Position numbers and translations under genes: made by a program. Of a stretch of DNA of 64,000 nucleotides, positions 24,967 through 46,231 are shown one piece after another. The stretch is from an uncultured delta proteobacterium (GTDB lineage Bacteria; Desulfobacterota; Syntrophia; Syntrophales; UBA2185). The number at the start of each line of letters is the position of its first letter. Within the stretch, counting starts at the first letter, position 1. The notes under the pieces are model-generated. The model saw only the letters and a list, made by a program, of their open reading frames with translations. It searched no databases and was not told the origin of the DNA. The stretch is from contig CAVOID010000011.1 of the NCBI GenBank assembly GCA_963695875.1, forward strand, positions 64,001 through 128,000. The letters run 5' to 3'.

Positions 24967-26818
<1,852 letters not shown>

Positions 26819-34810: not shown

Positions 34811-35006
34811 GGAGCCGTGAGCTGCCAATAGAGTTTGTCACTGAATGACAGAACGCTTCTTGTAGTCAATAAATCAGCGATGAAGATTGATGTGCGTATA
34901 GCAAATACTAATGTGCATAGTTGCTAATGGGACTAATTTATTGAATTCTGGATGAAGGTGCAAAGTCTTGACAGTAAATTCTCCGTACATGAAGAGTGTG
35001 CCTATT

Positions 35007-35056
35007 TTCCTGAAGTCAACACCCGCGCTTGTAATTAAAACATTGCAGATTACAGG
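35007..35056 (+). repeat. ~50-bp imperfect direct repeat, copy 1
   Basis: ttcctga-agtcaacacccgcgcttgtaattaaaacattgcagattacagg aligns to 37362-37412. Confidence 0.8.
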
Positions 35057-35268
35057 CTAATCTTCAGCACAAATCAGCGCAAGAGTTTTCGTTAATTGTA
35101 CTATATAGTAAGTAGAGGGAAGTGAAAATTGCTGTCTTGACGCTGGGAGGGCGGCATGGTCGAAGCCAAGAGCGACTTTCTCAGAGCACCCTAGGGTTGA
35201 GATGGCCTTTGTTTTCGAGGAATTAATATGGTAACGGTATTTTTTTTATTTAAGAGAATGCCCTAGAG

Positions 35269-35698
35269 TTATTTAAATTTCTTTATAATTTCTTCTTTAA
35301 TTTTGTTAGGGGGAATATTTTTATCATGTAATCTTTTTGTTAAGAGGGCCTCCTCTTGACATATCATTCACCCCGCCCCATGCTTATCAATAAAACAATC
35401 TAAAAGATTTTCATGACCATAAGCACTCACATTCGCAGAAACAAGGCACCTTTGAGAGAATTTCAGGAATATCCTTTGCTATCTGGTAAGCCTCTTTAGC
35501 CTTTCCTTTAAAAAGGTTGGGATCAAGAGTTTCCGGTAATCCAGTTTTTGGGTTGATTGCCTTTTCTTTCATAATCTTAAAAGCTTCTGGATTTGCTTCC
35601 TGTGCTATGGCTTTAGAACCTTCTGTAGTAATCATCGTTAGGAAAAAGACGAGCAGTAGAAGCATAAAAATTGAATGATGCATTTTATTTTCAACCAT
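35269..35698 (-). CDS. CYCXC/PCYCGC-type secreted (seleno)protein with UxxC; one frameshift near 35425
   Basis: Signal peptide, AYQIAKDIPEILSKVPCFCEC, then in shifted frame AYGHENLLDCFIDKHGAG-TGA(35368-70)-MICQEEAL...KKFK*; SECIS-like hairpin 35342-35357. Confidence 0.8.
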
Positions 35699-35842
35699 TA
35701 TTTACACCCTCTTTTCAATTGATCTCAAATCTTTAAATGAACCCCGTACACACTTGTACGTACAAGTCGTAATTCCAATATCGGCAGAATCATAGACCTG
35801 ATCCGACTCTTTATGCTGTGGACATTACGTGGTGCTGTGTTC

Positions 35843-36007
35843 TCAGGCCGGCTTGATCATCTTTTTTACTTTCTGCTCGGTGATGGCCATATTGTGGCTT
35901 TTCTTCGCATGTTGAATGGCTATCGCAACGAGTTCTTTTTCGTCATGGCTCTTCCCGGAGAAGTTGCATGGTGCGGGACACTCTATCTTTTTCATCTGCT
36001 CTGCCAT
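35843..36007 (-). CDS. DUF1059-like small metal-binding protein (54 aa, not in ORF track)
   Basis: MAEQMKKIECPAPCNFSGKSHDEKELVAIAIQHAKKSHNM...; GAGGT RBS; Cys/Cys/His/His pattern. Confidence 0.75.
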   Translation of the reverse strand: MAEQMKKIECPAPCNFSGKSHDEKELVAIAIQHAKKSHNMAITEQKVKKMIKPA

Positions 36008-36383
36008 GGTTGTTACCTCAATGATTTAAATTTTTATATTCGTCACCATAAAACCTGTCTTGTAAATAAGCATGTACCTGATTTTCGATGCTCCATTCTC
36101 CTAGTTACTCCGCTGATTGATTAAATCGCCATTTCGGTTTTCCGGCTACCAACCGCCTCTTGAGCGACTTTGATGTTTCATCAAGTCTTCTTCTAGGCAT
36201 ATAATACAGCCTCGATATCTTCCTGTTGTCAGTAAATGTCACTTCAATAAGAATTATCACCCGTTCATCCAGAAATGATCACCTGCGGAAGGGATCAATT
36301 CCTATAACATCCTCAATTACATTATGATAACCACTTTTCAGGTAGTATTGAGCGTGTATTAATCACCCCACATCGCTTCAAGT

Positions 36384-36695
36384 TTATTGGATGATCTTCG
36401 GTTTCCCTTCGATCGGGGAGTCGTGTTTGGCCAGATCCTCTGCAATCTTATCAATACTGGTTTTTGTGTCGTCGAATTTTACCATGACTTCATGAGTGAA
36501 TTGGTTCGCATCATATTGCAGTACCCCTGGGATTTCCTTCAGGGCAATACCTACCCTGCTAGCCGTGTCCGGTCATTCGCATCCTGGGACCACTATCTTG
36601 ACAATTCTTTCAGCAGCAAAAATGGTTTGTGACGCAATGAGCAGTAACACTACACTGAAAATACAGATCATAAGGTAATATTTCTTGTGCTTCAT
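36384..36695 (-). CDS. Secreted HMA (MerP/CopZ-fold)-like selenoprotein with CxU motif (103 aa, not in ORF track)
   Basis: AGGAG RBS; signal peptide; IVKIVVPGCE-TGA(36573-75)-PDTASRVGIALKEIPGV...VMVKFDDTKTSIDKIAEDL; SECIS-like hairpin 36540-36558. Confidence 0.8.
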
Positions 36696-36760
36696 GCGAA
36701 ATCTCCTCAGTATAAGGGGGTTAGATTATAAAGATGTCTCTCTACATTTACATCTATATT

Positions 36761-37222
36761 TTATTTCTCGAAGAACAATTCGTCCTCAATCTTGATGCAT
36801 CCGATGACACTCTGGGCGGCGGGGCAACGAGTGATATAGTTTGAGAAGCACTCTTTCGCATCGGCCATCTTTTCCTCAGTTACTTTCAGGTGGTATTTAA
36901 CACGGATGGTTGTGATCTTAAGGACTCCATTGACATTCTCGATGTCTCCTTCCACATCGGCCCAGTAAAGAGGTTCCGGGGTGGGAATCTTTTTTCCGGC
37001 CATCACCGTGGCCAGCGTCCCCATCATTCACCCTGCTGTCGCTGCAACAATATGATCAAGTGTTGCCGCATGCTCCTTTTCCGGCTCGACTTTGTAAAAC
37101 TTCATGATCCCACCGTGGACACCATAATAGACCGGTTCCGAAAATCCCTCAATCATCGCTCTCCGGGTCGGTCCTTTTTCCCTGACGATTTTAATTCGTG
37201 ATGTATGAACAACTTCTCCCAT
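36761..37222 (-). CDS. OsmC-like (seleno)protein, Sec at residue 65
   Basis: ORFs 37028-37288 and 36761-37027 are in frame and joined by TGA 37028-30 (HIVAATAG-U-MMGTL) at the first OsmC Cys; second Cys in TRCPAAQS; SECIS-like hairpin 36996-37015. Confidence 0.85.
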
Positions 37223-37361
37223 ACTAACCCTCCTTGGTCTTTTCCCACATAATAACTTAGCAGAAGGGTATTTACAACAAAATCCCACACAAATATGCCA
37301 TTATCCTGACAGGTCGTCAGATTTATTTGACCAAGACTGTCATTGGGGTGTTGAGACGTGC

Positions 37362-37412
37362 TTCCTAAAAGTCAACACCCGCATTTCTGATTAAAACATT
37401 GCTGATTACAGG
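37362..37412 (+). repeat. ~50-bp imperfect direct repeat, copy 2
   Basis: ttcctaaaagtcaacacccgcatttctgattaaaacattgctgattacagg. Confidence 0.8.
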
Positions 37413-37508
37413 AGGTACGGATCATATTGCGGTTTATAGTTGTTCGACAACAAAATTGACTTTTGTAAACTAATCATATAATGTAATTGAAAAATTAAAT
37501 ATTGATCT

Positions 37509-37587
37509 GGGGTTCAGAGACTATTCTCTGGAGGAATACGGTAAGTTGGTCGGGCCGCCACTGTTTAAAACAGTTGGCGGCTTTTTT
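37509..37587 (+). promoter_or_regulatory. nhaA-I (Li+-I) riboswitch-like RNA with overlapping intrinsic terminator
   Basis: GGGG-hairpin(TCAGAGA/TCTCTGG)-...GGTCGGGCCGCC; terminator GCCGCCACTGTTT-AAAACAGTTGGCGGC-TTTTTT; upstream of a cation transporter. Motif identity recalled, not searched. Confidence 0.7.
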
Positions 37588-37689: not shown

Positions 37690-38163
37690 ATGAAAGCAAA
37701 AGATTTGATGGTACCTGTTTATGATTATCTTAGGCCCGACAACAGTATCAGGGAAGCTGTCAATCTTCTCAGAACCGCTATACGGGGGAAAAATAAGTTT
37801 GGCGTTATGGGCTTATCCGTACTTGACGAAAAGGGGAAGCTTGTGGGGATGCTTTCCATGACGGACATTCTCAAGGCGGTCTACCCTTCCTACATGTCCA
37901 TGATGAATTTAGGTGAATTTACATGGGACGGAATGCTGGAGTCCCTCGCCAGGCAAGCGGGGGAAAGAAAGGTAAAAGACCTCATGACCAGTCCTGTGGT
38001 TACCGTTCACGAGGATGATCCTCTCATGGAGTGCGTGGACCATTTATTGAAAAACAACGTCAGAAGGATGCCTGTTCTGAATAAAGAGGGTAAAGTTGTC
38101 GGGATGATATACTTGAGAGATATATTCTTTGCCGTCACAAAGGCGATGTTAGACGAGAATTAA
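37690..38163 (+). CDS. CBS domain pair protein
   Basis: MKAKDLM, VLDEKGKLVGMLS, VKDLMTSPVVTV, RRMPVLN. Confidence 0.9.
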   Translation: MKAKDLMVPVYDYLRPDNSIREAVNLLRTAIRGKNKFGVMGLSVLDEKGKLVGMLSMTDILKAVYPSYMSMMNLGEFTWDGMLESLARQAGERKVKDLMTSPVVTVHEDDPLMECVDHLLKNNVRRMPVLNKEGKVVGMIYLRDIFFAVTKAMLDEN

Positions 38164-38175
38164 CAGAGGTGAAAA

Positions 38176-39546
38176 ATGACGCAGGAAGTCGTCGCTGCTT
38201 CAAATCAGATCGTTATGGGACCGGCGTTCTGGATTGCGACATCAATTTTTATTCTTGCTTACGCCCTGATCGTATTGGAGAAGATCCATAAGACCACCAT
38301 TGCTATCTTCGGGGCGGCCCTGATGATTGTTCTGGGCATTGTAACCCAGGACGATGCATTCCATTCGACCGAACTGGGAGTTGATTGGAACGTGATCTTT
38401 CTCCTCGTAAGCATGATGACCATTATCAATATCATGAAGCCTACCGGTGTGTTTGAGTACATCGCTATCAAGAGCGCCAAGGCGGCAAAGGGGAAACCGT
38501 TTATGATCATGGCGATATTTTCTGTTGTGACGGCTGTTCTCTCGGCTTTTTTGGACAATGTCACGACGGTGCTCCTGATCGCTCCGGTAACGCTTCTCAT
38601 CTGCCAGGCACTTGGAGCTTGATGTCGTCCCATTTCTCATTACGGAGGCCTTGCCTCCAACATCGGCGGGACGGCAACCCTCATCGGCGACCCGCCGAAC
38701 ATCATGATCGCCTCGAAGGCCCAACTGGACTTTATGGCATTCATTTACCATCTGACGCCGGTCATTATCATTACCATGATCATATATATCATTACCCTGA
38801 AGCTGATATTCGGAAAAAGACTGACAGTAAGAGAGGACTTGCGGCAGCGTGTCATGGCCATGGATGAAAACGAAGCGATTAAAGATCCGGTGCTCCTGAA
38901 AAAATCCCTTGTTGTCCTGGCGGTGACGATGACGGGATTTGTCTTCCATGGGATGCTCCATTTGCAGCCTGCAACGATTGCCTTTGTCGGTGCTGGGCTA
39001 CTTCTCCTGGTTTCCGGGATCAAAGAACCTCATCACATACTTGCCGAGGCGGAGTGGGGAACTCTCTTTTTCTTCATAGGGCTGTTCATTATCATCGGAG
39101 GAGTCATCAAGGTCGGCCTCATCAAGTGGCTGTCCATTCAGGTATTGGAGATTACCCAGGGAAACATGTTCGCTACGAGCATGGTCGTCATGTGGTTTTC
39201 CGCATTTGCCTCGGCAATTGTCGATAATATTCCCTATGTGGCTACCATGAACCCGTTGATCATCGATATGGCGAAACAGCTCTGGCCGAATCTTTCCGGC
39301 ACTGAGCTTTTACATCATCCGGATTTAATGCCTGTCTGGTGGTCGTTGGCACTTGGCGCATGTCTGGGCGGAAACGGAACGGCCATTGGAGCCTCCGCCA
39401 ATGTTATTGTCGTCGGCATGGCGGAGAGGATGGGCTATCCCATATCGTTCAAGAAGTTCATGCTCTACGGGATGCCGTTTATGATCCAGACAGTTATTAT
39501 CAGCATGATTTATGTCTGGCTGAGGTATTATGTGTTGAATATTTAA
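38176..39546 (+). CDS. ArsB/NhaD family ion transporter (frameshifted near 38620-38660)
   Basis: SAFLDNVTT, NIGGTATLIGDPPN, SAIVDNIP, LGGNGTAIGASAN. Confidence 0.9.
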
Positions 39547-39811: not shown

Positions 39812-40189
39812 ATTTACGTTTCGCTTTAATTAATCGGCATTCAGAACTATGGATTCTGGAGTGCTATCAGAGACTACAGTTCAAATGGTAATCTTCACTC
39901 CAATTTCAAAAATGAAAGTTACTGCTTTGTAGGTGTAGCAAATGCTATCCTTTTTATCTCGTTCTTCCTGAAGTCTTGTTTTTCTAATTCAGCCAATATA
40001 TTCATTATTTCATATGGTAAACATTATTTATTCCACAATGAAAGATGCCGGTAGGCTAACCGTCATTATGCAGGAGGTACTCACGATTCTAAGATATTTC
40101 GAGGGTTGTAATCATATTATTCCCGATTGTCATATCACGGCGAATGTTTATAAAATATTATGGGTCATATTTTACTGAAAGGAACGTTT

Positions 40190-40708
40190 ATGAAAGCAAC
40201 CTTTAAGTGGCTTGTTCATTTTTTTCTGATATGCAGTCTCCTCTTCATTTATTCTTTTCCGAATGCTGCGAGGGCAGAGCAGATCACTAATGTAGTGGAG
40301 AGCGACCAAGCTGACGATTTTACCCTGCAAGATTTGAATGGGAATGACGTCAGTCTGAGCGATTATAAAGGGAGAACGGTCATTCTATTATTCATGACTA
40401 CATGGATTCGCGACTGCTGGAAGGTGATCCCTCATATGAAGGAAATATATGCTCACTATGATTCAAAAGGTCTGGCTATTTTTAATATTGATATCATGGA
40501 ATCAAGAAAAAAGGTGGCGCACTTTTCAAAAGAATACGACATCCCCTATCCAACTCTTTTGGATGAAGATGGAAAACTCTCTCTCAAATACGGGGTTTAT
40601 AGCGTGCCAGTCGTGGTTCTGATCAACGGTGAAGGCCGGATCATCTGTTGGAATTGTTCGTCGCTAGACAAGCTGCTGGAGAAACAATTCGAAATGAAGC
40701 AGAAGTAA
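40190..40708 (+). CDS. TlpA/redoxin family thioredoxin-fold protein with atypical active site
   Basis: DFTLQDLNG..VSLSDYKG, FMTTW-IRDC, YGVYSVP, C-terminal CWNC. Confidence 0.8.
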   Translation: MKATFKWLVHFFLICSLLFIYSFPNAARAEQITNVVESDQADDFTLQDLNGNDVSLSDYKGRTVILLFMTTWIRDCWKVIPHMKEIYAHYDSKGLAIFNIDIMESRKKVAHFSKEYDIPYPTLLDEDGKLSLKYGVYSVPVVVLINGEGRIICWNCSSLDKLLEKQFEMKQK

Positions 40709-40778
40709 CAGCAAAATATTTTGTCCATACCGAATTTTGCTCTAATCTTGTTCTCACTAATATAAGGAGGGTAAAAAG

Positions 40779-41147
40779 ATGATTAGTATCAAGATGGGGA
40801 AAATGAGCGGTTTGGTTTACATATTGCCGGTCATGTTTATGATCATTCTGCTGACTTCCTGTGCGACAATGGGCAAGGCTTATCATAAATATTTAATGAA
40901 AGGCAGCATCATAGAAACCTCGGACGATGGTGTGTACCTCTGCATTGGTACAAGAGACGGTGCAAAAGTAGGTCAGGAGTTCGATGTCTACAAAATCATC
41001 ACAATCTCACATGCTAGGTCGACGTTCCAAAGAGTACATGCAGGAAAGGTAAAGATCACGGAAATTGTTGATGAGCACTTTGCAAAAGCAAAGGTTATTT
41101 CCGGTAAAGCAGAAAAGAATGACATTGTGGAATTATCCGCACCTTAA
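40779..41147 (+). CDS. Hypothetical lipoprotein (FlgT C-terminal-like beta-barrel)
   Basis: Lipobox LTSC; VYLCIG..DGAKVGQEFDVY...GKVKITEI. Confidence 0.6.
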   Translation: MISIKMGKMSGLVYILPVMFMIILLTSCATMGKAYHKYLMKGSIIETSDDGVYLCIGTRDGAKVGQEFDVYKIITISHARSTFQRVHAGKVKITEIVDEHFAKAKVISGKAEKNDIVELSAP

Positions 41148-41230
41148 TGTGCGATTCAGATTGTTGGAGAAGATGCAAAACCACGTTTTAGATATCTACT
41201 TTTATCTTTAAAAAGGAAAGGAGGCAAATT

Positions 41231-41806
41231 ATGTACTTGAAAGTAAAGAAAATATTTTTGGGGTCAGTCATACTGCTTTTTGTTCTGTCCGTGGCTGTTG
41301 CTACTGCCCAGCAGAGTGCTCCTGCCATCAGCGGTCAAGATCAACAGTTGGTGAATGAGCTGAAAGGCAAAAATGGAAAACAGGCGATGGAACTGGCTTA
41401 TCAATGGAAGCAGACGAATATCGATGTTGTGAGTTTCGTGACCCCAGATGCAGTCCATTTCAAGTTCAAAGATGGAACGGAGAAAGAAGTACCCCTGCCG
41501 GCGGATCAAATGGTCGTATCCATCGCTCCATACATCAATAAGACTCACCCGTGTTCGACGCACTATATGTCGAAGTGCGACGGAGAACTGAAGAATACAC
41601 CCGTAAAGGTCAAGGCCGTAACCGCCCAAGGCAAGGTACTGATCAACAAGACGATTAAAACACCCTATTACGGTTTTATCGATCTCTGGCTACCAAGAGA
41701 TCAGGAGATCAATCTGTTCGTAAGCGCCATGGGTAAGAAAGCAACGGGAAAAATATATACATATAGAAACAGCAAGACCTGCGATACCACACTGAAGCTC
41801 GAATAA
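41231..41806 (+). CDS. CueP-family periplasmic metal (copper)-binding protein
   Basis: Signal peptide; VSIAPYINKTHPCSTHYMSKCDGEL, GFIDLWLPRD, KTCDTTLKL. Confidence 0.8.
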   Translation: MYLKVKKIFLGSVILLFVLSVAVATAQQSAPAISGQDQQLVNELKGKNGKQAMELAYQWKQTNIDVVSFVTPDAVHFKFKDGTEKEVPLPADQMVVSIAPYINKTHPCSTHYMSKCDGELKNTPVKVKAVTAQGKVLINKTIKTPYYGFIDLWLPRDQEINLFVSAMGKKATGKIYTYRNSKTCDTTLKLE

Positions 41807-41937
41807 TGAGACCCGTTTTTATGAAGTGGCTGGCCGGGAAACGCGAATTGATGTTGAAGATAAAGTCGTTTGTTGGCAGGGAAAAGGAACAAGCGATTAT
41901 ACACTTGAGCAATGCCGTTTCGCGTGCCACACTCGTG

Positions 41938-42827
41938 ATGAGTCGAATAGCCAAAACAATATACGGCAGGCTGAGAAAAATTGTAAAAGACTTGAGCGGC
42001 GTCGTTTCCAGCGGATATCCGTATTACAGGCATTCGCTGCCGGTGCGCATTATGCACTGGAGCAATGTTGTTTTGCTTGCCATACTCCTGATGAGCGGTC
42101 TCAATATTTTCAACGCCCATCCGGCGCTCTACTGGGGCAAGTCAGTCTTACAGCGGCGTTCCCCCCGTATTGGAGTTGCGGGGCAAAGAAGACGATGAAG
42201 GAGAAATCTCCGGCGTCACCCGCATCTTCGGCCACGAATTCGATACAACCGGATTCCTCGGCGCCTCCAGAGACGCGGCGGGAGAATTAACCGAACGTGG
42301 CTTCCCATCCTGGCTTACCATACCCGACTGAGCGATGGCTTGCCATGGCGCGGCGCTGGCACTTTTTTATCGCCTGGCTGCTCGTGGTAAACGGCATCAC
42401 CTTTGTGACCTACTCCATTGTGAGCAGGCATTTGCATCGTGATCTTGTTCCCACGAGGCAGGATTGGCGTTCGATAGGCAGATCGATTATCGATCATCTG
42501 CGCTTTCGACATCCCACAGGCGAGGCGGCCAAGCACTACAACGTACTGCAGAAATGCGCCTATCTGGTGGTGATCTTTTTCCTTCTCCCCCTGATGATCC
42601 TGATGGGACTGGGTATGTCGCCGGCGCTGGACGCATTGTTCCCCGGCTGGGTGGATATCTTTTCCGGCCGACAATCCGTAAGGACGATCCATTTCGTTGT
42701 CGCCTGGGCGCTGGTGCTGTTCGTGATCATTCACGTGTTTATGGTAATCGTCAGCGGCTTCTGGAACAACCTTCGCTCGATGATTACAGGATACTACAGG
42801 ATCGAATCGGAGGCGGATCATGAGTGA
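41938..42827 (+). CDS. Cytochrome b/b6-domain membrane protein (YdhU-like); frameshifted, start uncertain
   Basis: YRHSLPVRIMHW, SGLNIFNAHPALYWG, RRWHFF, YNVLQKCAY, RTIHF. Confidence 0.8.
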
Positions 42828-43596
42828 TGACAACAAGCTCACCCGGCGTAGTCTCATGACGCGCCTTCTTGCCGGCGCAAGCGTAGTGGTGCTTAGCGGC
42901 TGCGAAAAACTTTCGGAAACCACCTGGTTTCCCAAGGTGTTGGGTTTAGGCGAAAAGGCTACGTATAAAATTCAAAGGCTGGTCCTGCCGCGCAAAGCGA
43001 TGGCGCAGGAATTCACAGAAACCGACCTGTCACCGCAATTCCGCAGCAACGGGACATCAATGCCGAATAATCCAACATACATGGCGCTGGCAGCCAAAGG
43101 ATTTACGGACTATCGCCTCGAGGTGGGCGGTCTGGTTGAACGGCCCATGACTTTTTCGCTTGCCGACATTCGAAAGTTTCCCAGTCGCACCCAGATAACG
43201 CGCCATGATTGCGTTGAGGGGTGGAGCGCAATAGGCATGTGGAAGGGGGCGCGCCTCAGCGCGCTGCTCGAAGCAGTACATCTGAAGCCCAATGCCCGTT
43301 ATGTCGTTTTCCACTGCGCAGACCCGATGGAAGAAGATGGCAGCTCCCCCTATTACGAGAGCATCGACCTGGAAGACGCTTTTCACCCGCAGACGATACT
43401 CGCTTATGAACTGAACGGCAAACCATTGCCAATCCAGAACGGCGCACCGCTTCGCTTGCGATTGGAGCGGCAGCTTGGCTACAAAATGGCGAAGTATGTC
43501 ATGCGCCTTGAAATCGTCGAAGATTTTTCCGGGATAGCCGGGGGGAAAGGGGGTTACTGGGAAGACCAGGGATACGAGTGGTATGCCGGCATCTAA
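42820..43596 (+). CDS. Molybdopterin-dependent oxidoreductase (sulfite oxidase/MsrP-like), Tat-exported
   Basis: TRRSLM Tat motif, HDCVEGWS, NGAPLRL, GYKMAKYV, GYWEDQGY. Confidence 0.88.
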   Translation: MSDDNKLTRRSLMTRLLAGASVVVLSGCEKLSETTWFPKVLGLGEKATYKIQRLVLPRKAMAQEFTETDLSPQFRSNGTSMPNNPTYMALAAKGFTDYRLEVGGLVERPMTFSLADIRKFPSRTQITRHDCVEGWSAIGMWKGARLSALLEAVHLKPNARYVVFHCADPMEEDGSSPYYESIDLEDAFHPQTILAYELNGKPLPIQNGAPLRLRLERQLGYKMAKYVMRLEIVEDFSGIAGGKGGYWEDQGYEWYAGI

Positions 43597-43910
43597 GAAG
43601 TCCTGACAATAACACGGAGGATAGTTTCAAGAGCATCATCAACGGGTCAGGAATAGGGACATCCTTTACATATTTACATTTGCAAAATGGATCATATGAT
43701 TCTTCATGATCTATCTCAATCCCGCGGGTGAATCAAAACCGCGCCAACAATCCACAATGTAGAGCATTTCAATCGATAATCTTCATTATCCACTTCATGG
43801 TGATGTTCACACTTTGTAGGTGCTATACGTAACAAAATGGTGATTGCAACTTAGGTTTATTAGGTTCATCATCTATCTGTATTTCCTATTGAATCACAGG
43901 AAAGGAGATA

Positions 43911-45080
43911 GTGATGGACCAGATGGCCATAGAAAATTGCAGTATCGTTTCAGCGAAAGAATCCCTGCCGGAATTTGGAATCAATGATCGACAGGCAGGG
44001 TTTCTCCCATCCATTATTTTACCCGAGATCTATAGAGGAAAATCAGGGAAGGTAGTTTATCCTGCGTACACGCAGGAGGCAAAAGCTCTTCACTGGGCAT
44101 TGGATCGCCTTGCAGGCTGGGAATTGCCGGGCAAAGAGCATGTTGAGGAATATTTTCGGAGCATGTATCGGCGGAACTTCCGACCGAGGACATACGCCAG
44201 TGCTCTGACTGCTATTTACGACTTCCTCACCGGTGTCAGGGATTCGGGAAAGACCTGTCTGGAAGAGATCACCAAGCGTGACATTGAAGCTTTTATTGAA
44301 CATGAGCAGGATCGCGGTTTGATGCTATCGACGGTGCGGACGAAACTGCACTGCGTCAATGCTTTTTTGGGTTATGCGATTGACGCAGGGGTTGTCAGCG
44401 CTGATGTCCTGGCAAGAAGGATTCGCCTGAAAAAGCCCGAGACATTGCCGCGGGCCATGGATCCGGACGATGTGAAGCAATTACTCTCCGTTATCGATAA
44501 TCCGAGAGACCGGGCCATGATCATGGTTCTTTTACGGACGGGGATGAGAATCGGCGAGCTGCTCAACACCAAGATGCAGGATCTTCACCTCAGGGATCGC
44601 AGGATTGATATTTACGAGGGAGAAAAGAACCGGCTAGGGACGGGTTGTTTATCTCAGTGATGATGCGATGAGTGCTTTGAAGGCATGGCTCAAGATGAGA
44701 GACGCCTCATAAGGAGTTTCTCTTTTACGCCACAGGGCAGGAAAAGCATGTCCTATAGTACGGCCCATCTTATCTTTGAACAGTATCTCACGAAAGCCGG
44801 TCTTACCCATAAGGGGTATTCCCTTCATGCGCTTCGGCATACCTTTGCCAGTGAGCTTCTCAATGCCGGCATGCGGATCGAGTGTCTTCAGCCGTTGATG
44901 GGGCATACCTCTCTGGATGTGACACGGCGCTATGCCCGGCTCACGGACAAGACCAGGGAGGAAGAGTACTTCAGAGCCATGACGATTATAGAAAGGGGGG
45001 AGATTGATGGCCATTACCGATGCGATCATCAGGTACAGGCGTTTCTTGAAGAGAAGGAACGTCTCACCGAATACCGTTAA
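43911..45080 (+). CDS. Tyrosine recombinase A (frameshift near 44640)
   Basis: LLRTGMRIGE, GEKNR, HALRHT, LMGH, TRRYA catalytic set. Confidence 0.88.
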
Positions 45081-45901
45081 GAACTATTTGAACGGCCTGA
45101 AACATTTTGTTCTCTGGCTTGATGTGCCGATCGAGGAAGCCACATACCGGAAGATTATTGCGTATATGGATTATCTCGCTCGGCAAACGGTTAAAGCCAA
45201 AGACGATCAACTGTTATCTCAACAGCGTATGTCAGTTTTATCACTACCTCTCGGAAGAAGAGGAAGTCCCGATCGTCAACCCGGTGAAGAAGCCGAATAT
45301 CATGAAGCTCCCCAGGGGACTTCCCAAGCATCTGAAAGACGAGCAGATAGAGATCCTCTTCAAGAATCTGAAAGGGCCAAGGGATCGAGCCATGTTCATG
45401 ATTATGCTCCGATGCGGATTACGGGTGGAAGAAGTGGCCCATCTTTCCCTCGGCAACATTGATCTTAAACGCAGAATCCTGCTTATCCAGGACGGCAAGG
45501 GCGCCAAGGATCGGATTGTCTATATCAGCAACGATGCCCTTCCTGCTCTCCTGGAATATCTCAGGGTGAGACCGGCAAATAAAGTAAAAAAGGTCTTTCT
45601 GGTAGAGAAAGGGCCTCTTACCGGACAGCCTATATCCATTCGCGGCATCCAGAAACGGATGGAATATTATGCCCGCAAAACAAACCTGAGAATCTCCTGT
45701 CATCATCTTCGCCATACGATGGCCACACAGATGTTGAATGCCGACACCGATCTCTCTACGATCCAGGATCTCCTGGGGCACAACTCCATCAGAACAACGC
45801 AACGTTACTGCCGGATATCAAACCCGAAAGTACGAAGGGATTACTTCAAAGCCATGGAGGTCATCATGCAACGAACGGCTGGCAACCCAGATAATCCTTG
45901 A
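45007..45901 (+). CDS. Tyrosine recombinase B (frameshift near 45180)
   Basis: CGLRVEE, GKGAKDR, HHLRHT, LLGH, TQRYC; overlaps recombinase A by 74 nt. Confidence 0.88.
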
Positions 45902-46231
45902 CGAAAGAACAAAACTATGAAATCTTAAACACAACTTAACACATTAATATCAATAGGAAATACAGATTATGTTACGTATAGGTAGGTGAACTAACAACAA
46001 CCCCCGTTTTACCGCTTCCTTCCTATTATTCACGAATCGCCAACCTAAATGAAGATGGAGGGTTTCAACCCGTAATCGTTCATGTTGTTTAATTAATTAT
46101 TATGATATGAATTATAGAAATCTATACTTTCGGTTCTGTGAGAGCTTGGGGCCTCCCAGAGTATCTAGGCGTCTATCTCGGTTGGCGATCCGTAGCCGCA
46201 CCATATATTAAAAACAATAGCAGTTTAAGTT

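Follow-up and report, generated by a model that had tools for sequence, protein, structure and literature searches.

Three neighboring selenoprotein genes in a Syntrophales genome, probably united by the shuffling of accessory modules

Three apparent selenoprotein genes and one further small gene lie side by side on the minus strand of a 64,000-nt stretch of DNA from an uncultured Syntrophales bacterium ("the window" below means this whole stretch). Do they form a single functional module, or did they come together by other means? The original prediction described four co-oriented genes, encoding OsmC-like, HMA, DUF1059 and CYCXC proteins, and proposed a selenium-based periplasmic metal-handling or redox module. 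All four genes are present in the block at 35269..37222, a variable region behind smc (Table 1), and the closest homologs are found in MAGs of Syntrophales. The last three genes, HMA, DUF1059 and CYCXC, are spaced 377 and 145 nt apart. The host genome is called G000 here, and contigs C3, C4, C6, C7, C9, C11, C12 and C15 belong to it; its completeness is 82.6%, and most of the relative genomes compared are fragmented MAGs. The reading we favor, with a probability of roughly 0.7, is that the three selenoprotein genes are genuine and were joined to one ordinary small gene by the shuffling of accessory modules.

Table 1. Features of the four-gene block and its boundaries, in window coordinates.
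Feature	Position	Strand	Remarks
Left boundary motif	35006..35059	minus	TTGAAA-like box, 35 nt, TTCAGGAA box; 16.9 bits; one copy of the 44-bp direct repeat
Exported CYCXC/OS_HP4 selenoprotein gene (UxxC)	35269..35698	minus	frameshifted as assembled
CYCXC SECIS-like hairpin	35342..35357	minus	35/35 homolog contexts pass the hairpin rule
Sec codon of CYCXC gene	35368..35370	minus	second frame; TGA 54/54
DUF1059 small protein, 54 aa	35843..36007	minus	C-x3-C...H-x4-H; PF06348 26.1 bits (cut-off 21.1)
Middle boundary motif, between HMA and DUF1059	36219..36272	minus	12.6 bits, a weak score alone
Exported MerP/CopZ-fold HMA selenoprotein, 103 aa	36384..36695	minus	metal loop C39-E-U41
HMA SECIS-like hairpin	36540..36558	minus	stem begins 14 nt after TGA
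Sec codon of HMA gene	36573..36575	minus	in-frame TGA
OsmC/Ohr-fold selenoprotein, 153 aa	36761..37222	minus	U65 at first catalytic Cys position; C134
OsmC SECIS-like hairpin	36996..37015	minus	7-bp stem; 6-nt loop starting 19 nt after TGA
Sec codon of OsmC-like gene	37028..37030	minus	TGA in 80/80 homologs (best 80 of 152 confirmed)
Sigma-70-like promoter match upstream of osmC	37249..37277	minus	consensus match only
Right boundary motif, upstream of osmC	37361..37415	minus	14.0 bits; other copy of the 44-bp direct repeat

Selenocysteine codons and their decoding

The TGA codons of the OsmC-like, HMA and CYCXC genes lie where they had been placed and are almost certainly selenocysteine codons. 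The claim that all three are in frame holds for OsmC and HMA, but the CYCXC TGA is out of frame with its start codon as assembled. TGA is kept in every one of the best 80 of 152 confirmed OsmC-like loci, in which U65 and C134 are also invariant; across the order, 84 of 91 OsmC-like matches carry it, and the gene is present in 84 of 339 genomes. HMA matches occur in 215 of these 339 genomes, with one TGA in 136 of the 150 matches listed, a count that leaves 108 weaker matches outside. For CYCXC, all 54 metagenome loci in which the column is present have TGA (55 loci, one cut short). Cys variants at the same column, a check that the original prediction had asked for, were found for all three genes. 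Five full-length OsmC-like matches contain no stop, and the one checked has TGC (G054); HMA variants have TGT (L058, L255) or a CxC loop (P0143, P0144, P0147, P0150); and among 30 CYCXC loci sampled from the phylum, the 15 in which the pattern could be parsed have Cys in 10 cases and TGA in 5.

The three hairpins are exactly as described, with stems that begin 12, 14 and 10 nt after the TGA (OsmC, HMA and CYCXC). Their match to bacterial SECIS geometry was borne out when a simple hairpin rule of our own, rather than bSECISearch, was applied to the contexts downstream of TGA and Cys codons: 68 of 70 distinct OsmC, 35 of 35 CYCXC and 40 of 43 HMA TGA contexts pass, compared with 14 of 402 true TGA stops, 45 of 510 Cys codons and none of three Cys homologs, among them the G054 homolog of the OsmC-like gene. 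A GG-containing loop is present in the window hairpins but is not conserved, since homolog loops often have one G at position 1 or 2. In 12 close copies of the HMA hairpin, 95% of cells are paired, with no two-sided change. As for the decoding machinery, selA and selD of G000 score over the model cut-offs, selD carrying a TGA of its own, and tRNA-Sec (selC) is present. The selB gene is frameshifted, lying in two overlapping frames (C9 79843-81742), and is intact in three of three relatives. Two genome-wide screens of our own for Sec genes missed known cases and were too noisy for a selenoproteome count. A Sec reading was rejected for the TGA of DUF1059, which acts as a true stop and has a TAA behind it in G002.

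Standard gene callers miss these genes, as had been expected: an OsmC fragment and the CYCXC homologs end at the TGA in protein databases. The 64-aa OsmC fragment heads a protein cluster of 120 members; among 40 of these, 4 are named, three as "hypothetical protein". The HMA and OsmC-like Sec subfamilies, for all the genomes that they reach, escape the curated models and appear in annotation as hypothetical fragments, and the selenoproteomes of these syntrophs are therefore under-counted.

The length of the CYCXC gene, 430 nt, is 1 mod 3. The first 91 codons reach the C-x-C-x-C motif, and the remainder, including the TGA, lies in the next frame, because one extra base near 35426, upstream of the TGA, shifts the frame by +1. 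Homologs consist of 109 aa, Sec and about 32 aa; those at 88% identity run in frame up to the TGA, and close DNA homologs, including two related contigs, do not have the base. The two halves of the window gene score 49.4 and 59.4 bits against NF041379 (positions 2-38 and 41-90), each below the cut-off of 90 and with a sum of 108.8, and both the C-x-C-x-C and U-x-x-C motifs are present. Of 101 orthologous genes in the G000 assembly, 26 fall into more than one frame, a few of these being repeat artefacts. Comparison with same-genus loci gave 41 isolated one-base indels, 33 of which are insertions in G000, and 25 of these insertions are non-homopolymer. Because the base near 35426 belongs to this class of single-base insertions it is probably an error, and the frameshift would most likely have arisen in assembly. 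Elsewhere in the window, a gene at 24982-26573, which we take to be ATP synthase beta-subunit-like, ends in a shifted frame; like the split selB, this is typical of the assembly.

Gene order and the boundary motif

The proposal of a selenium-based periplasmic metal/redox module is not supported: the four-gene order was not found in any other genome searched, the genes have different nearest relatives, and two of the products are cytoplasmic. None of 80 osmC loci, 69 of which have at least 1.5 kb of downstream sequence, holds HMA or CYCXC within 4 kb; a single locus holds DUF1059, upstream, and another (L077) has one weak HMA-profile match in a 238-codon frame. Likewise, none of 55 CYCXC loci, 30 of them with at least 1.2 kb upstream, holds osmC or a small HMA gene, the ten HMA-profile matches there being long frames, at least nine of them the P-type ATPase. 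Both osmC and HMA are listed for 47 genomes, mostly fragmented MAGs, and in none are they within 50 kb of each other; they lie on different contigs in 43 and at distances of 57 kb to 2.2 Mb in 4. The flanks of osmC, however, were read directly. Across 61 relatives, G000 and one weak match are all that the NF041379 profile gave, and a DNA search of the family's 21 other genomes yielded no CYCXC.

Nucleotide identity to G002 varies along the region, from 86% at the smc end, which is the core level, to 96% for osmC, 88% for DUF1059 and 79% for HMA. Copies of osmC in another family match it at 95-97% identity, GC content is 0.35 in CYCXC versus 0.49 in osmC, and G000 holds unlinked second copies of osmC, HMA and DUF1059, the last on contig C12 at 96% identity. 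On this evidence the parts of the block have different histories, which speaks for a mosaic origin. Sec-OsmC also occurs in four records (L089, L104, L118, L123; 79-89% identity) that bear the titles Dehalococcoidales, Dehalococcoidaceae, Hyphomicrobiales and Nitrospirota, reflecting either transfer or mis-binning.

A 44-bp direct repeat brackets the block, and its two copies, together with a weaker one in the middle, are instances of a bipartite intergenic motif of about 55 bp. The motif has 102 matches in the genome, often in co-oriented runs, versus 1 and 5 in shuffled sequence. Homology to relatives stops at the right end of the motif, at 37366-37370 (L070, L077, X2, X5), at 36225 (G002, G000:C7, X7) and at 35014 (L077), the last locus resembling this region of the window but with osmC as the sole gene between the outer motifs. 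Because homology stops at the motif at all three places, the block reads as two units. Under this scheme osmC-HMA and DUF1059-CYCXC would be separate units, each delimited by the lineage-specific motif, that were joined recently in the lineage. A genome-wide breakpoint test gave a weak result, with 6 of 34 near-site alignment ends at most 10 nt from a motif end (249 ends in total), and the motif lies upstream in only 4 of 80 osmC and 2 of 55 CYCXC loci. G000 has six tyrosine recombinases, none linked to the motif; a search for IS91-type transposases gave no match anywhere, controls included.

Contigs of related strains, which are small-share DNA contigs of metagenomes, preserve parts of the arrangement. 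The osmC-HMA junction occurs in X1, X2 and X7 (three runs from three studies), and the DUF1059 leader is linked to CYCXC in L155, L163 and X7. In run X1, short pieces at about 90% identity together take in all four genes and bridge two junctions, and the whole block may therefore exist in another strain; none of the related-strain contigs spans all of it. Decay is also seen in these strains: beside CYCXC, L155, L163 and X7 have lost part or all of DUF1059, and HMA is broken off at 36578 in X2.

Several features of the surroundings deserve mention in their own right. Further motif copies lie at window 39964 and 46019 (minus strand) and throughout the genome, for example at C7 13-55 kb and at C11 218-244 kb, in co-oriented runs with 0.5-3 kb between copies. 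Hexamers like those of the sigma-70-like match upstream of osmC occur in several relatives. No Rfam family was found inside the block; outside it, an nhaA-I RNA motif at 37510-37562 (plus strand; score 42.9, Rfam gathering score 37) precedes two genes, one for a CBS protein and one for an ArsB/NhaD-type permease with a frameshift (37690-39546), a pair with a 77% copy on C4. Window 40160-43596 encodes a ResA/TlpA-like protein with the motif W-I-R-D-C (first Cys missing), a CueP over its cut-off, and a pair of cytochrome b561 and molybdopterin oxidoreductase with a 92% copy on C6. At 43875-45967, two tandem tyrosine recombinase genes, the first broken, lie between perfect 18-bp inverted repeats.

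Alternatives to shuffling

The co-location of osmC, HMA and CYCXC is not wholly random. At 12 of 12 other C-E-U HMA loci of the family examined, a Sec peroxiredoxin or Sec rhodanese gene lies within about 1.6 kb, although this count left out G014:C84 and its loci are kin, amounting to about two or three arrangements. Selection or a common pool of genes might thus hold Sec genes together. Selection could favor a flexible pairing of an exported C-x-U HMA protein with an interchangeable Sec redox enzyme, be it a secreted peroxiredoxin, a rhodanese or, in the window, OsmC, with Sec genes kept in small mobile islands for shared regulation or for co-transfer among Sec-competent hosts. This idea, which we regard as doubtful, would also fit a second group of three Sec genes in G000, within 2.7 kb on C15 (rhodanese, HMA, rhodanese), a terminator-like hairpin that follows osmC in two relatives and is replaced by the HMA leader in the window, and the co-located unrelated selenoprotein genes reported in section 9 of PMC13188914. 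However, independent events are few and the backbone of the tree has weak support (26-49). An order-wide CxxU HMA orthologue (L053-L069, L265-L271) sits among housekeeping genes (yggS, maf and a manC-like mannose-1-phosphate guanylyltransferase), none of three C-G-U copies of another family has a Sec neighbor by our own motif patterns, OsmC is cytoplasmic whereas HMA is exported, and HMA breaks off in one related contig, as described above. Equally speculative is the proposal that small selenoprotein genes pass among Syntrophales in cassettes bounded by sites, and that an exported C-x-U HMA gene is repeatedly paired with a Sec redox enzyme. If this cassette reading were true, it would imply a modular Sec metal/redox defence in a mercury-methylating syntroph, with the block caught in assembly.

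A dedicated four-gene periplasmic module based on selenium, recent, restricted to the lineage and possibly linked to mercury, seems improbable. Co-orientation, the two exported proteins of metal-binding type, the coverage of all parts by X1, the host hgcA and the CopA-type ATPases ahead of CYCXC elsewhere (see below) speak for it; against it stand the lack of a conserved order in any genome searched, the boundary motif and 377-nt gap that split the block, the deletions of DUF1059 beside CYCXC, and a block that holds no transporter or regulator. It is very improbable that errors of the assembly produced the arrangement or some of the TGAs. G000 does contain many single-base insertions, one of them in CYCXC, but independent contigs bridge the HMA-osmC junction and the middle motif, and for the TGAs such an origin is ruled out by TGA at the same columns in independent genomes. 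Shuffling of accessory modules remains the reading that we prefer, and the adjacency of selenoprotein genes in a single genome is a warning against reading it as a pathway.

Other HMA loci gave observations of their own. The C15 group (L209, 37534-40252) consists of a rhodanese (C-T-U), a C-E-U HMA paralog and a second rhodanese (C-K-U), and its HMA-rhodanese part recurs in G014 and G019. Directly behind HMA in G002 (L206, 5895-6464) lies a peroxiredoxin gene, split at its TGA, with a T-P-V-U motif and a signal-peptide-like start; the same peroxiredoxin, below NCBIfam cut-offs, follows HMA in L042, L044, L045, L047, L049, L050 and L214.

Probable functions and comparison with known systems

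We infer that the OsmC, HMA and CYCXC proteins each work on their own. The original prediction was right in counting two exported members: N-terminal hydrophobic stretches occur in HMA and CYCXC only, with best 11-residue hydropathies of 3.4, compared with 1.7 and 0.75 in the others. The OsmC protein has no signal peptide and is cytoplasmic. It scores 38.7 bits against PF02566 (cut-off 27.5), and its model (pLDDT 87) matches OsmC and Ohr structures in a fold search; a sequence search of solved structures gave no match. In Ohr/OsmC chemistry, the first catalytic residue attacks a peroxide or oxidised sulfur and a second Cys resolves the intermediate. By analogy, the most likely substrates of the OsmC/Ohr-fold protein are organic peroxides or oxidised sulfur, which U65 would reduce, with C134 as the resolving residue.

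The HMA protein has a signal-peptide-like start and scores 25.7 bits against PF00403 (cut-off 24.8). Its model (pLDDT 81) has a ferredoxin-like fold, with MerP (1osd) as best match. Sec in the metal loop of a fold that matches MerP makes soft-metal binding in the periplasm the likeliest role, and on this modeled structure the protein would most likely bind Cu(I) or Hg(II) via C-x-U as a periplasmic buffer or chaperone; a redox role is conceivable. The host is likely a mercury methylator, since its hgcA (G000:C3 25574-26566) scores over the cut-off, and a mercury link of the block is conceivable. A periplasmic protein of MerP fold whose metal loop is Cys-x-Sec makes a candidate for Cu or Hg capture in an hgcA host.

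The CYCXC product is Cys/His-rich and predicted to be exported. In a more distant lineage, its gene lies behind a CopA-type ATPase in 14 of 55 loci, behind a cysteine-synthase-type PLP enzyme in 27 of 55, and before a DegP-like protease in 20 of 55. This copA-cysK-CYCXC-degP context points to copper stress, which by analogy the exported protein most likely serves. Three loci (L169, L183, L202) have the order copA, cysteine-synthase-like gene, Sec CYCXC, DegP-like gene and SHOCT, and this arrangement is the better candidate for a real CYCXC pathway.

That Sec-containing OsmC-like and CYCXC proteins are known individually, as had been stated, is correct. The window CYCXC protein resembles its family (NF041379/PF13798; UxxC in Table 1 of PMC13188914) in its C-x-C-x-C and U-x-x-C motifs, in the alternation of Cys and TGA, and in that its two halves match the model end to end; it differs in being frameshifted, in its longer exported N-terminus and in lying outside the copA-cysK-degP context. 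With the catalogued OsmC-like selenoprotein (PF02566, UxxT; PMC13188914 and the available part of PMC1088965), the window OsmC shares the OsmC/Ohr fold, Sec at the first catalytic Cys and a second invariant Cys, but its motif is U-M-M-G-T. Against NF041052 (cut-off 95) it scores only 13.9 bits and its Cys homolog 24.4, and by these scores it is a separate Sec subfamily, apart from NF041052.

The HMA protein shares with single-domain MerP/CopZ proteins (TIGR02052; 1osd, 1afi) a signal peptide, the ferredoxin-like HMA fold and the place of the metal loop. However, it scores 39.1 bits against TIGR02052 (cut-off 92.55), has C-x-U rather than CxxC, and adjoins no mer genes. Its Sec-containing relatives are NF041115 and the MerT/CopZ fusion NF045683; in place of the UxxU of NF041115 it has C-x-U. 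This loop form occurs in the family of the window and in one other, with C-x-x-U elsewhere and Cys forms of C-x-C or CxxC. Exported C-x-U/CxxU HMA proteins fall below every NCBIfam 20.0 cut-off and are absent from Table 1 of the review PMC13188914; a word search of the accessible text of PMC13326102, PMC12013277 and the SAO preprint, with supplements (BSepDB, GOS) outside its scope, did not find the family. The available part of PMC2398784 has two selenoprotein sequences named "Mercuric transport protein MerP", given with no motif or domain, which could belong to it. Within the catalogues covered (NCBIfam 20.0 and Table 1 of PMC13188914, supplements aside), an exported Cys-x-Sec MerP-like protein is therefore missing.

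At the level of the whole block, two comparisons can be drawn. In integrons, small gene units are held as cassettes between short recombination sites, the attC sites. The window resembles them in its co-oriented short sites between small gene units and in homology that ends at one end of the site; it differs in that the motif has no attC-type core or long hairpin, no recombinase is linked to it, and the units have promoter-like leaders of their own.

PMC13188914, which lists CYCXC (UxxC) and OsmC-like (UxxT) proteins, also describes operons of unrelated Sec genes. The SAO is a nine-gene neighborhood with transporters found in more than 50 species (available part of bioRxiv 10.1101/2022.07.06.499078; PMC13188914, section 9), whereas the window block has neither conserved order nor a transporter, and no recurrence of one gene set in one order over many genomes, as in operons of the SAO and Tso type, was found for it. 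What it shares with the SAO and Tso operons is unrelated selenoprotein genes side by side, with a metal-binding flavor.
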